24,125 nt of DNA from Desulfobacterales bacterium (GTDB lineage Bacteria > Desulfobacterota > Desulfobacteria > Desulfobacterales > B30-G6). The notes below the pieces were generated by a model that ran no database searches, was not told the DNA's origin, and worked only from the letters and a program-made list of their open reading frames with translations. The DNA is taken from positions 1 through 24,125 of the forward strand of contig JASJGV010000611.1 in assembly GCA_033791325.1 (NCBI GenBank), given 5' to 3'. The position numbers and the translations under genes were made by a program. Positions 1,014 to 17,692 of the stretch are shown here, in pieces (position 1 is the stretch's first letter; the number at the start of each line of letters is the position of its first letter).

Positions 1014-1331
1014 TCAGGAGAATCGAAAAAGAACGTCTTCAAAATTCTTTATTTTCCCCCTGTTGAACTCGATCCCTTCGTCCTTGAGCATGTTTATTTT
1101 TTTCTGTATCTCGGCTCCAGATGTCTTTCCTTGAAATCCCCCAATCCGACCGGATGTGGCAACAACCCGATGTCAGGGCACCTCAGGCGCATATGGATTA
1201 TTTCGCATGACCTGCCCGACGCCCTGATATGCCTTGGTATCCAGAGCATGGGCAATTTCTTTATAGGTTGTCACACGCCCTTTAGGTACCTTCCTTAACA
1301 GGTCATAGGCTTTATCGGCAAACGTTTTCAT
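1014..1331 (-). CDS. O6-methylguanine-DNA alkyltransferase (MGMT family), predicted selenoprotein with Sec53 at the catalytic Cys
   Basis: MKTFADKAYDLLRKVPKGRVTTYKEIAHALDTKAYQGVGQVMRNNPYAPEVP(TGA)HRVVATSGRIGGFQGKTSGAEIQKKINMLKDEGIEFNRGKIKNFEDVLFRFS. TGA at 1173-1175; frame intact on both sides. ATG overlaps the upstream stop (ATGA, 1328-1331). Family call is strong; Sec recoding is inferred. Confidence 0.85.
1141..1159 (-). promoter_or_regulatory. Candidate bacterial SECIS element for the MGMT UGA
   Basis: cca-c-atcc[ggtc]ggat-tgg: 7-bp stem with one bulge. G-led loop begins 21 nt after the UGA. Confidence 0.65.
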
Positions 1332-1765
1332 TGTTTATTCCTCTCTTCTAGGTCGCGAATACTTTTTCTTATTTCAGCCGGAATCGGCACTTTCTTATTG
1401 TTTTGATAATCAAATGTAACCAGAACGCCTTCTCCCATGGCTGCTATTTTCTTAAACCTATGACTGATTACAGCATACTTCATTATAAACCGATCATCTT
1501 CTATGGCATCCACTTTGGCTCCCACCATGACATGATCCGGATAGGTTAACGGAATTTTGTATATGCATTGAGTAGACGCAAGTATGGGGCCAATGCCTGT
1601 TTTGTTCATGACCGCCAGAAAATTAATTTTTTCAAAATATGAAATCCGTGCGCTTTCAAAAAGTTTGAAATACACGACATTGTTAACATGCTGAAATGCA
1701 TCCATGTCACCCCAGGCTATCGGCGAATCAATCACCACTGGATAGTCACTAATGAGTTCTTTCAT
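1328..1765 (-). CDS. Acyl-CoA thioesterase, hot-dog fold (YbgC/FadM/4HBT family)
   Basis: WGDMDAFQHVNNVVYFKLFESARISYF motif. Start re-called at MKELISDY (ATG 1765, after GGTGGTGA). Confidence 0.9.
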   Translation of the reverse strand: MKELISDYPVVIDSPIAWGDMDAFQHVNNVVYFKLFESARISYFEKINFLAVMNKTGIGPILASTQCIYKIPLTYPDHVMVGAKVDAIEDDRFIMKYAVISHRFKKIAAMGEGVLVTFDYQNNKKVPIPAEIRKSIRDLEERNKQ

Positions 1766-1778
1766 TTTATCACCACCG

Positions 1779-1833
1779 TTTGAACCGAAATAGCAAGCGC
1801 ATTCCCCTATCCTGCCGCAAGGTTCTTCAATCA
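1779..1833 (-). repeat. Dispersed repeat family S, short copy
   Basis: Reverse complement begins tgattgaagaacct (14 bp identical to 12160-12173) and ends cggttcaaa (identical to 12297-12305). Confidence 0.8.
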
Positions 1834-3354
1834 CCTATAATCCCGGTAATCCACCCCACATTGCTTGGCCTTGTAGGCAAATTTTCGTACCGTTGTCTGA
1901 AGCAGTTCGGCAGCCAGGGTTATATTGCCCCGCATGTTTTTCAAAGCATCGATAATCATCTCCCGCTCGAGCTTATTGACGGCATCTTCCAGGGACAATG
2001 CCGGCAGGGTATCGGTTTCTTTACCGGTTTGCAGGGTCGGGGGCAGATGATAGCCGTGAATCACGCCCCCGTCACATAGCAGAACAGCCCGTTCAATACA
2101 ATTTTCCAACTCTCTGACGTTACCCGGCCAGTGGTATTCCACCATCATGTCGATGGCCGGTGTTGAAAGCCGCTTGATCTCTTTGTTGTTCTCCCGCACA
2201 TATTTTTCCAGGAAATAATCTGCCAGGAGCAGTACATCGGTCTTGCGTTCCCGCAAGGGCGGCATATAGATCGGGAATACATTCAGGCGGTAATACAAAT
2301 CCCCCCTGAAGCTGCTGTCCTCAACCGACTCTTCCAGATTCTTGTTCGTGGCGGCGATGACCCGCACATCGCACTTAATGGTTCGATGGCCACCCACGCG
2401 TTCAAACTCTCTTTCTTGGAGAACCCGCAGGAGCCGGACCTGAACATCGAGATCGATGGCGCCGATTTCATCCAGGAAGATAGTGCCCTTGTGTGCCTGT
2501 TCAAATTTGCCTAGCTTTTGCTTGATGGCACCGGTAAAGGCGCCTTTTTCGTGACCAAACAACTCACTTTCGATGAGGTTGGCAGGCAGGGCCGCACAAT
2601 TAACTTTGATAAAAGGGCTTTTAACCCTCAGACTATTGTAATGAATCGAATTGGCTACCAGTTCCTTGCCGGTGCCACTTTCTCCCCTGATCAAAACCGT
2701 GGCATTGCTCCTGGAAACCTGCGTTATCATTTGAAAAACATCCCGCATCTTGTTGCTGTTGCCGATCATGTCGGTAACGCGGTATTTCTTTTCGAGTTCA
2801 CCCCGCAGACGTTTGTTTTCCTCGCCAAGACGGTCTTTTTCCAGCCGAACTCTCTCCAGGTTGATCACATGCCTCGCCAGCATGGTGGCGACAACGGATA
2901 ATAATTTTCCACCCTCTTTCAGATCGTAGGCTTCATCAAAAGGTTTGTCTACACTGAAAGCCCCAATGACCTGATTCCCCTTTATAATAGGGGTACAGAT
3001 AAACGACATTTCCTGATCTATTTTCTTCCTGCGGGATGTTGTCCGGTTGAGAAACAGGGGCTCCTTGCTTATTTTCGGTATCGTCAACGCCTTGCCGGTC
3101 TGGAAAACCCGCCCGGTGATACCTTCTCCGATCTTATATCTGACGCTTTCGACATCTCGTTTTGAAAGACCGTGGGCCACCTCAATATTAATTTCGTTTT
3201 TTAAAGGGTCCAGTATGGTGACGGTCCCACGAACCATGTTCATAGAATTGGACAAAATATCCAGAACCCGGTATAAGGATTTTTTAAGATCCAGGTGGGC
3301 ATTCAGCGCGACACTGATTTCGTATAGAAGGGTCACTTCTTCAATTTTTTTCAT
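1831..3354 (-). CDS. NifA-like sigma54-dependent activator (GAF + AAA+ + Fis-type HTH)
   Basis: Walker [19 protein letters not shown], Walker [28 protein letters not shown]; N-terminal GAF; C-terminal HTH. Confidence 0.95.
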
Positions 3355-3453: not shown

Positions 3454-4632
3454 ATGATCATTCATGTCGACATGGACGCTTTCTATGCATCGGTGGAGCA
3501 ACTGGACAATCCAGACCTGAAAGGCCAGTGCGTCATGGTGGGTGGCACCACAAACCGGGGTGTGGTGTCGGCTGCCAGCTACGAAGCTCGAAAATTCGGT
3601 GTCCACTCCGCCATGCCCATTTTCCAGGCAAAACAGAAATGCCCCGACGGTGTCTTTGTACCGCCCAGAATGTCCCGCTACAAGGCTATTTCTCGGCACA
3701 TCATGACCATACTGAAAGGATTTTCCCCGTTGGTTGAGATGGTGTCCATCGACGAAGCTTATATCGATATCTCCGGATGCACTCAAATCCTGGGCTCCCC
3801 CCGAGAGATAGCACTCACCATAAAGAAAAGGGTTTTAAAAGAGACCTTTTTGACCTGTTCGGTGGGGGTTGCACCGGTGCGGTTTTTAGCCAAGATTGCT
3901 TCTGACCTGGACAAGCCTGACGGGCTTACCATGATTCGTCCAGATCAGGTAGACGATTTTATTGATTCCCTTGCAATCCGGAAAGTTCCCGGCGTGGGCA
4001 AAAAAAGCACAGAGCAGCTCAACCGGCTCGGCGTTCGCTTTCTCGGCGACATCAAACAGTATCCAAAAGATATGCTCACAAAACGACTGGGCAAATTCGG
4101 ACATCGACTGGTTGAGCTATCCTACGGGATAGACACAACACCGGTATCTCCTGAATCAGAGCATAAGTCCGTCAGTTCAGAGATTACCCTTTCAAAAAAC
4201 ACCCTGGACACACGTTATCTTAAACAGACACTCCTTCAACAATCGGAACAGGTAAGCAAGGAGCTTAGAAAAATGGGTGTCAAAGCCAAGGTGGTAACGC
4301 TGAAGCTGAAACATGAAGATTTTAAACAGATCACACGCCGTATTACGATCCAGACACCAACACAGTCTACAAAAACCCTTTATAAGGAAGCAACCGGGCT
4401 TCTGGATCAATACAGCCTGACCCGGAAAGTCCGGCTGGTGGGCGTAGGGGCTTCGGGTTTTATCAGCGAAGCCGAACCTGTTCAGATGGGTATCTTTGAC
4501 AAAACACCGGCCAAGAGCCGAAATTGGGAACAGGTCGATAAAACCCTCGACCACATCGACAAGAAGTTTGGAAAGGATGTTGTTCGTCGGGCTTCCTTGT
4601 CACGCGGATCGAAAAAAGAAACCTCTTCTTGA
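3454..4632 (+). CDS. dinB: DNA polymerase IV (Y family)
   Basis: IIHVDMDAFYASVE, VSAASYEARKFGVHSAMP, SIDEAYID, AKIASDLDKPDG. Confidence 0.97.
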   Translation: MIIHVDMDAFYASVEQLDNPDLKGQCVMVGGTTNRGVVSAASYEARKFGVHSAMPIFQAKQKCPDGVFVPPRMSRYKAISRHIMTILKGFSPLVEMVSIDEAYIDISGCTQILGSPREIALTIKKRVLKETFLTCSVGVAPVRFLAKIASDLDKPDGLTMIRPDQVDDFIDSLAIRKVPGVGKKSTEQLNRLGVRFLGDIKQYPKDMLTKRLGKFGHRLVELSYGIDTTPVSPESEHKSVSSEITLSKNTLDTRYLKQTLLQQSEQVSKELRKMGVKAKVVTLKLKHEDFKQITRRITIQTPTQSTKTLYKEATGLLDQYSLTRKVRLVGVGASGFISEAEPVQMGIFDKTPAKSRNWEQVDKTLDHIDKKFGKDVVRRASLSRGSKKETSS

Positions 4633-16810: not shown

Positions 16811-17692
16811 ATGTCCGTATCAGCTAAAAGGGTAAATGGGTTCTATTTTATGCCGCCCTCACTCAGCGCATGGATCGGTCAAACCATACCTGAAAAAAAG
16901 TTTGGTGGGCAAATCCCCTGGACACCCCTGAAAAAACCCGTCTCGGAAACCGTTTTCTCTTTGATGACATCCGCCGGCATCAACATTAAAACAGACCCGG
17001 ACTTTGACATGCAGCGGGAAAAGCAGGAACCCACATGGGGAGATCCCTCCTACAGGAAGATACCGAAATCGGCAAGGGAATCAGACATCCATGTCAATCA
17101 CCTGCATGTTAATACGGATTATATCAAAAAAGACATGAACGTAACCCTGCATTTGGGGCGATTTCGGGAATTCGAAACCGATGGTGTTATCGGTGCAATA
17201 GCCCCCACGTCCTATTCCTATTACGGATATCAAACAGATCCAACCGCTCTGATGGAAGAGACCATGCCAAAGGTTGTGGCAGACATGAAATCCGAGGGAG
17301 TGGAAGCCGTTCTCCTTACCCCGGCCTGACCGCTGTGCTGCCGGTCCGTGGGACTGGTTGCACGGTTTCTCGAAGAGAATGGGATCTCCACCATTCTGCT
17401 CACCATGACACCCGATTTTAACAGAGAAATAGGAATACCGCGCATTGCGGCCATCGAATACCCTTATGGACGAGTCGTGGGTGAAGTAAATGATACTGAA
17501 GGACAACGGCAGGTGCTTCTGGAAGCATTGTCGGTGCTGGGTACTGCAAAAAAACCGGGTGAAGTGGTACATCTGCCATACACCTGGCACGAAGACCCCA
17601 AAGACACAAAATGGCATCCGCCCGAGGCTTCCCCCATCATCAAGATGTACCTCGCGACAATAAAGAAAGCCGGAGCCGAAGCACGCAAGTAG
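16811..17692 (+). CDS. Glycine/betaine/D-proline reductase selenoprotein B family protein (PrdB-like), 293 aa, Sec173
   Basis: Track ORFs 16811-17329 and 17348-17692 are in one frame. Read-through gives EAVLLTPA(TGA)PLCCRSVGLVARFLEENGISTILL, matching the PrdB UxxCxRS pattern. PWTPLKKP and GDPSYRKIP upstream; GGAGG RBS. Confidence 0.92.
17335..17363 (+). promoter_or_regulatory. Bacterial SECIS element for the PrdB-like UGA
   Basis: gtgc-t-gccggtcc[gtg]ggactggt-t-gcac: about 12-bp stem. G-led loop begins 18 nt after the UGA at 17327-17329. Confidence 0.8.

Follow-up and report, generated by a model that had tools for sequence, protein, structure and literature searches.

A selenocysteine (Sec)-containing form of the DNA alkyltransferase MGMT was first reported from Carboxydothermus hydrogenoformans (CHY0809; PMC1287953). 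Two further sequences were counted in the metagenome of the Olavius algarvensis symbionts (Zhang & Gladyshev 2007; PMC1976440) and one in the Global Ocean Sampling (GOS) data (Zhang & Gladyshev 2008; PMC2398784), and two reviews, from 2022 and 2026, name Sec-MGMT as a selenoprotein family (PMC9312934, PMC13188914). The family has been catalogued since 2005-2007 as a computational prediction; our literature search turned up no experiments on a natural Sec-MGMT. The gene we investigated adds one member. It is located on contig JASJGV010000611.1 of the Desulfobacterales bacterium assembly GCA_033791325.1, of which we analyzed a stretch of 24,125 nucleotides (positions 1 to 24,125 of the forward strand; hereafter the window). 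The gene belongs to a marine-sediment lineage of sulfate reducers and is very probably a genuine Sec-decoded gene with a UGA codon at the position of the nucleophile. That the encoded protein is a DNA-alkyltransferase we hold with less confidence. An earlier note on this DNA, made from its letters alone, had described a hidden Sec alkyltransferase of the MGMT family in a Sec-decoding host, and had called such enzymes rare deltaproteobacterial or metagenomic predictions. This description matches the first three reports (PMC1287953, PMC1976440, PMC2398784), and the reading itself is supported by the alignment of the TGA with Cys, by 59 loci that carry the TGA, by selection downstream of it, by a hairpin tied to it, and by selA and selB in the same genome.

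Like the window gene, CHY0809 (ABB14497.1) encodes a PF01035 protein with UGA/Sec at the alkyl-accepting Cys and a stem-loop right after the UGA, and it was likewise predicted from Sec/Cys homology. Unlike the window gene, it comes from a thermophilic Firmicute, and reviews place it in COG0350 (AdaB). We set CHY0809 beside the clade of the window gene by description only; it may belong to the same single-domain subfamily or represent an independent change from Cys to Sec. The Olavius and GOS sequences share with the window gene a deltaproteobacterial or marine origin, and the metagenome-assembled genome (MAG) labelled 'Olavius sp. associated proteobacterium Delta 1' contains an orthologue (L074) that is 79% identical, with TGA at the same codon and the same hairpin. 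In the Olavius and GOS papers these genes are rows of a table, without clade size, anatomy of the selenocysteine insertion sequence (SECIS), or switching between Sec and Cys. What is new here is the size of the clade, a SECIS anatomy resembling that of fdhF, a control provided by Cys forms with relic hairpins, and the mis-annotation of these genes under genetic code 4.

The chemistry has a precedent in an engineered protein. Human O6-alkylguanine-DNA alkyltransferase (AGT) with Sec at its nucleophile (C145U) protects E. coli from N-methyl-N'-nitro-N-nitrosoguanidine (MNNG), and the Sec makes activation by Asn137 dispensable (PMC4150793). As in the window protein, Sec stands at the MGMT nucleophile, and the engineered protein shows that selenolate repair chemistry works in vivo. 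Unlike the window protein, human AGT C145U is artificial, has two domains, and is made by EF-Tu/UAG recoding with no SECIS, while the natural protein keeps the Asn (N45).

The reading frame and the codon at the active site

The features of the gene are as follows.

1014..1331, minus strand: predicted Sec-MGMT coding sequence, with ATG at 1331-1329, 105 sense codons (1331..1017), and a final TGA at 1016-1014
1173..1175, minus strand: in-frame UGA, codon 53, at the active-site nucleophile of P-U-H-R-V, aligned with the Cys of P-C-H-R-V
1339..1345, minus strand: Shine-Dalgarno-like GAGAGGA, 7 nt 5' of the ATG, read from the sequence itself
1141..1159, minus strand: candidate SECIS minihelix, CCA-[bulged C 1156]-AUCC / GGUC tetraloop (1151-1148) / GGAU-UGG, from folds and comparison
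1122..1181, minus strand: near-invariant segment of about 60 nt around and after the UGA, with synonymous sites suppressed, from sliding identity

The TGA at 1175-1173 is the sole internal stop in the minus-strand translation of the 105-codon MGMT frame. The earlier note had described just such a frame with a single TGA at the nucleophilic Cys, and the span it gave, 1014-1331, is accurate and includes the terminal stop. Read on the plus strand, the same interval yields a nonsense translation. PF01035 (the MGMT DNA-binding/active-site domain, also DNA_binding_1) matches residues 4-87 and spans the TGA on both sides (84.5 bits, cut-off 27 bits, E 4.6e-24), and TIGR00589 (the NCBIfam ogt superfamily) also scores above its cut-off on the 105-residue protein (61.7 vs 46.4 bits). 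In alignments with the solved MGMTs 1mgt, 4zye, and 1sfe, codon 53 falls on the alkyl-accepting Cys. Orthologues have GGAGG-type motifs at the same distance from the start as the Shine-Dalgarno-like motif in the window. TGA is also an ordinary stop codon in this host, and it terminates the MGMT gene itself; a genetic code in which TGA encodes Trp is therefore not the explanation.

The internal TGA is shared with many relatives. A scan of 60 related genomes recovered seven orthologues, four from the same genus and three from other families of the order, which are 78-87% identical to the window gene and each have a single TGA, at codon 53 (7/7). Across 80 loci from species-representative genomes, codon 53 is TGA in 59, TGC or TGT in 20, deleted in one, and TGG in none; relatives that all carry TGC/TGT or TGG, a possibility raised in the earlier note, are thus not what we find. 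The orthologues sharing the TGA are 70-87% identical overall, and they come from Desulfobacterota-type MAGs (Desulfobacterales, Desulfobulbia, and Desulfatiglandales), including that of the Olavius Delta 1 symbiont. Within the genus the gene is present in five of ten genomes, the source MAG included, and is accessory. For 56 distinct Sec forms the ratio of nonsynonymous to synonymous change (dN/dS) is 0.075 before the TGA, and codons 69-104, with a value of 0.21, are under purifying selection; therefore the part after the UGA has been kept as protein. Contigs from three independent marine-sediment studies that span 1173-1175 have no alternative base there. Because the TGA is shared by the contigs of three studies, it does not represent an error of sequencing or assembly, which the earlier note had also considered.

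Some copies of the gene elsewhere are degraded. One of them (L091, in OY762721.1, a second copy beside L070) has an extra stop and a frameshift, another (L094) is frameshifted after about residue 70, the third (L087) is disrupted at its 5' end, and the fourth (L095) has lost the active-site region to a deletion. A TGA form that is 83% identical and has the bacterial hairpin was found on a 1.8-kb contig labelled Candidatus Bathyarchaeota (L046, JARRMB010000140.1); mis-binning of a Desulfobacterota contig is the likeliest explanation, ahead of a Sec-MGMT in archaea. A 39%-identical match in genome G050, at first sight a second type of Sec-MGMT with one TGA, is an ordinary Ogt with PCHRV, and the TGA is its stop codon.

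A hairpin conserved together with the UGA

Numbered from the U of the UGA as +1, the hairpin occupies +17 to +35, with 13 nt between it and the UGA; the lower stem opens at +17, the upper stem follows from +21, and the loop places its G-U at +26/+27. The hairpin with a G-led loop that had been proposed downstream of the UGA is thereby recovered, with a GGUC loop, its upper stem at +21, and conservation together with the UGA. Sliding identity reaches 0.95-0.975 in 1122..1181 and is about 0.82-0.89 elsewhere. In the eight closest sequences, synonymous variation at codons whose amino acid is invariant occurs in 3/14 cases within codons 54-68 vs 39/53 elsewhere. The 58 Sec forms have fixed codons within the hairpin (Ala GCC 55/55, Ser TCC 58/58, Gly GGT 58/58, and Arg CGG 58/58), and three or four synonyms are used for each of the flanking Gly, Val, and Ala codons. 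The synonymous difference (pS) at codons 58-63 is 0.010 in the 56 distinct Sec forms vs 0.52-0.56 in the flanks, whereas in the ten Cys forms from the same clade, which have the same amino acids at these codons, it is 0.575. A GGUC loop occurs in each of the 56 Sec forms but in only three of these ten Cys forms. The RNA-level constraint at the hairpin is tied to the presence of the UGA. Among 51 distinct sequences, 98% of the stem cells are paired and six pairs are invariant; the seventh pair occurs as A-U, U-G, G-U, G-C, and U-A, with seven double changes.

The predicted element resembles the SECIS of E. coli fdhF, whose gene sequence we fetched for comparison. The SelB-binding minihelix of fdhF is GGU-[U]-GCA / GGUC / UGC-ACC, with the G-U of the loop at +23/+24. 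Both hairpins combine a 3-bp lower stem, a single pyrimidine bulging from the 5' strand, and a short upper stem with a GGUC tetraloop that exposes G-U, and both lie inside the coding sequence shortly after a UGA that is followed by a His codon. They differ in that the loop G-U of the MGMT hairpin is exactly 3 nt (one codon) further downstream, the upper stem has 4 bp vs 3 bp, and the bulge is C instead of U; only fdhF has a longer lower helix that extends back toward the UGA. The predicted SECIS of the MGMT clade, being fdhF-like, might be recognised by E. coli.

The same segment stands out in the metagenome runs X1, X2, and X4. The word depth of the contigs is about 20-fold higher only at 1131-1172 (e.g., from 5 to 137 in X2), and many contigs of 31-87 nt break off precisely in the hairpin region. 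An identical SECIS of about 40 nt, common to many co-occurring genomes and collapsing the assembly graph, would account for this pattern.

True Cys forms exist at about 75-85% identity to the Sec-MGMT. In a tree built from the DNA without the TGA codon and the hairpin columns, the ten Cys forms fall in at least five places among the Sec forms; this tree has no outgroup root and, with so short a gene, is weakly resolved, but its well-supported branches alone force at least two changes between Sec and Cys. The switches within the clade are always between TGA and TGC/TGT, never TGG. Three of the Cys forms (L052, L075, L079) have an intact hairpin, and the other seven have lost it; these close Cys forms, some with relic hairpins, provide a natural control. 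More distant homologues, 45-62% identical and from DPANN archaea, Methanosarcinales, Helicobacteraceae, and Patescibacteria, all have Cys and no such hairpin. On the unrooted tree the simplest history would be a single gain of Sec from Cys followed by several reversions.

Database searches give a different impression at first. Among the best 120 protein matches, 22 read P-W-H-R-V, and one could assume that these are relatives of the Atl type. We rejected this assumption: the DNA behind these entries yields them only under TGA = Trp (e.g., P0002, L118:222-539, and P0005, L119:430-771), and the Trp was introduced by code-4 gene calls on short contigs. The P-W-H-R-V entries are further Sec forms. 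With standard gene calling, the gene either ends after 52 residues or, where contigs are short, acquires a Trp at the TGA, and the mis-called codon puts false 'PWHRV' Atl-like proteins into public collections, which could mislead the classification of the family.

The source MAG (G000) is 74% complete and consists of 624 contigs. It encodes both selB and selA, which score 372 and 600 bits against cut-offs of 242 and 268, respectively. In five more complete relatives with the same TGA gene (G003, G006, G008, G032, G039), tRNA-SeC(UCA) was identified by Infernal and ARAGORN in four and selD in all five (e.g., L116 and L117), each selD with one in-frame TGA; G039 has two TGA-containing selD copies. 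The selenophosphate synthetase of this lineage thus appears to be a selenoprotein, too. The lineage has Sec machinery, and the idea that the genome might lack it altogether, also considered in the earlier note, does not hold: the MAG itself encodes selA and selB, and its congeners add tRNA-Sec and selD.

The protein and the rival readings

Among 53 members of the single-domain family to which the window protein belongs, Y23, N45, H54, R55, and E85 are invariant; we take these to be the equivalents of Y114, N137, H146, R147, and E172 of human AGT. The protein aligns with canonical Ogt/MGMT proteins (the best solved match being 1mgt, with SsOGT 4zye and the C-terminal part of E. coli Ada, 1sfe, as further examples) throughout the helix-turn-helix (HTH), the Asn hinge, the P-C-H-R-V loop, and the C-terminal E-G motif. 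It differs from them in having no N-terminal domain, Sec for Cys, and Gln for the arginine finger. With S. pombe Atl1 (3gva) and V. parahaemolyticus Atl (2kif) it shares a single-domain layout of about 105-116 residues without an N-terminal MGMT domain; however, in the Atl proteins Trp or Ala replaces the nucleophile and the N-P Asn hinge is missing, whereas members of its own family retain this hinge together with Cys or Sec. When the PDB sequences were searched with a profile of the single-domain family, true MGMTs scored 63 and 60 bits, and S. pombe Atl1 57.5 bits, matching end to end (1-98 to 3-98). The host also encodes a canonical protein:

G000:C271 (L137:983-1879), minus strand: Ada-like protein of 298 residues, with an AraC-type HTH and a two-domain MGMT

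This Ada-like protein reads I-P-C-H-R-V, has an intact arginine finger, and matches PF02870. Since the host has a canonical Ada-like Cys-MGMT, the Sec protein would be an additional alkyltransferase.

We infer that Sec is inserted at UGA-53. In the mechanism that we propose, SelB carrying Sec-tRNA(Sec) would bind the mRNA hairpin, whose stems of 3 and 4 bp, with a bulged pyrimidine between them, and whose GGUC loop would be formed from the codons for A-T-S-G-R-I-G, from 13 nt after the UGA; SelB would then deliver Sec to the UGA in place of termination. The protein would flip out an alkylated guanine, like other O6-alkylguanine-DNA alkyltransferases, and accept the alkyl group irreversibly (suicide transfer) on a selenolate rather than a thiolate. 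By analogy with these enzymes, the usual suicide O6-alkyl transfer, here onto a selenolate, is most likely. Both the transfer of alkyl groups from DNA and any kinetic advantage from Sec are inferences, and the faster or recyclable repair suggested in the earlier note is speculation. Very few selenoprotein families would, like MGMT, use up their Sec as an alkyl acceptor instead of employing it in redox catalysis. One costly Sec would be spent on every alkyl group removed, which raises the question of what the cell gains. Candidate advantages are a pre-ionised selenolate that is free of the Asn/His/Glu activation network, as in the engineered human AGT C145U, and better performance in sulfidic, anoxic sediments. 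The Sec-MGMT clade offers a compact, 105-residue test case with close natural Cys counterparts.

Several observations weigh against a Sec-decoded alkyltransferase. Folded as a single sequence, the hairpin has an energy of -6.6 to -7.4 kcal/mol, which is no better than that of shuffled sequences (z +1.4, +1.0, +0.9, and -0.8), so its significance rests only on the comparative data. Rfam identified no SECIS family in a scan of 950-1400, where the only match, to nrdJ, was sub-threshold (18.7 bits, E 0.49). The covariation is limited to one base pair, which also has seven unpaired cells. The Fisher test on the synonymous codons (p 6e-4) and the shuffling of the double changes (their number reached by 0/500 shuffles) overstate independence, the sequences being related, but neither the contrast with the saturated flanks nor that with the Cys forms rests on these p-values. 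In the 74%-complete source MAG we found neither tRNA-Sec, including in a search with the tRNA-Sec DNA of a congener, nor selD, with only a paralogue of the selD family at 79.7 bits; a tRNA-Sec candidate in this MAG (34.7 bits) is tRNA-Ser(GGA) according to ARAGORN. On the side of the protein, PF02870, the N-terminal ribonuclease-like MGMT domain, has no match in the 105 residues, and the arginine finger is absent: Gln Q36 (CAG, 1226-1224) stands where 1mgt and 4zye have the Arg of P-RAVGG. The family has 39 Arg and 14 Gln among 53 sequences at this position, with Arg in most orthologues and Gln also in the nearest relative (L118) and four other members of the clade. As Arg and Gln alternate within the family, Q36 is a variant and not damage, and it may mark a different mode of base flipping. 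Finally, the literature reports alkyl-transfer activity for no member of the single-domain family that we could find.

Three alternative explanations concern the codon itself. Public gene callers already output a Trp translation, and if UGA-53 were mainly read as Trp by near-cognate decoding, the product would be an Atl-like protein without a nucleophile; P-W-H-R-V is the classic Atl motif, the layout of the protein is Atl-like, and in E. coli a low level of Trp insertion competes with Sec at UGA codons. If Trp were selected, however, TGG would be expected, and the 59 TGA and 20 TGC/TGT loci are accompanied by no TGG; the switches within the clade always lead from TGA to TGC/TGT, the SelB-type hairpin is frozen in the TGA forms only, and TGA terminates genes normally in the host, the MGMT gene among them. 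We consider decoding as Trp to be highly improbable. A pseudogene with a premature stop, making only the N-terminal fragment of 52 residues, is what standard calling of open reading frames (ORFs) suggests (the 52-aa ORF at 1173-1331), and some related loci (L087, L091, L094, L095) are truly degraded. Yet the TGA occupies exactly one codon in 56 distinct sequences, which are otherwise free of stops and frameshifts; dN/dS after it is 0.21, and H54, R55, and E85 are invariant, which leaves this explanation with even less probability. The fragmentation of the MAG, at 624 contigs and 74% completeness, could invite the suspicion that a TGC was turned into TGA during sequencing or assembly; given contigs from three independent studies without a variant and the same TGA in dozens of independent assemblies, we regard the chance of such an error as negligible.

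A different alternative accepts that the gene is Sec-decoded but holds that the protein is not a DNA O6-alkylguanine transferase, being instead an Atl-like lesion sensor or acting on another electrophile. The single-domain Atl layout with end-to-end matches to Atl1 (57.5 bits) and to vpAtl 2kif, the missing PF02870, Gln at the arginine-finger position, the canonical Ada-like Cys-MGMT that the host already has, and a literature search that gave no biochemical study of the single-domain family all speak for it. However, the full MGMT catalytic set is invariant (nucleophile, His, Arg, Asn hinge, Tyr, Glu), and true MGMTs slightly outscore Atl (63 and 60 vs 57.5 bits). Furthermore, that costly Sec, or Cys, is kept exactly at the nucleophile argues for covalent chemistry and not mere binding. 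We therefore consider this alternative unlikely and prefer a Sec-decoded alkyltransferase. Far more improbable, in our judgment, are two departures from suicide transfer: a gene with two products set by selenium, or a Se-alkyl adduct that can be removed and would let MGMT turn over. In the two-product case, which is speculative, selenium when present would lead to Sec and a suicide alkyltransferase; when absent, near-cognate Trp would give P-W-H-R-V on an Atl-like scaffold, and this Trp form would bind the lesion, be unable to accept the alkyl group, and might hand the lesion to excision repair.

A second selenoprotein gene and the gene neighborhood

The window contains a second gene of the Sec type, as the earlier note had claimed; its PF07355 match, a TGA kept in seven congeners, and a strong hairpin all bear this out.

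16811..17692, plus strand: putative second selenoprotein gene, GrdB family, 293 residues (PF07355, E 3.7e-8)
17327-17329, plus strand: TGA for the predicted U173 in T-P-A-U-P-L-C-C of the GrdB-family protein, kept in seven congeners
17332-17366, plus strand: hairpin after the GrdB-family UGA (-24.5 kcal/mol, z -3.4, loop G-U at +22/+23)

Paralogues of the GrdB-family protein at 33-35% identity also have a TGA.

Around the MGMT gene, the window encodes the following.

1328..1834, minus strand: ORF for a 4HBT-type thioesterase, 5' of the MGMT gene (PF13279, E 3.8e-24), whose TGA stop at 1330-1328 overlaps the MGMT ATG
1831-3354, minus strand: NifA-like sigma-54 activator (GAF, AAA+, and HTH domains)
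3454-4632, plus strand: Y-family translesion DNA polymerase of the DinB/Pol IV type (PF00817, PF11799)

The sigma-54 activator, the thioesterase, and the MGMT gene (the first two forming the string 1328-3354) overlap by 4 nt at both junctions (GTGA and ATGA), which suggests that they form a single, translationally coupled transcript. A consensus scan found no intrinsic terminator 3' of the MGMT gene. The ATGA overlap with the thioesterase, taken by the earlier note as a coupled start, is real in the window; the coupling is lineage-specific, however, as the arrangement of activator, thioesterase, and MGMT is absent from all orthologous loci checked, none of which has a thioesterase or TerB gene adjoining. 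The gene context therefore gives no clue to function. The Y-family polymerase gene lies about 2 kb from the MGMT gene and is divergent from the string of activator, thioesterase, and MGMT; the polymerase and the MGMT may represent a loose DNA-damage neighborhood or a coincidence.

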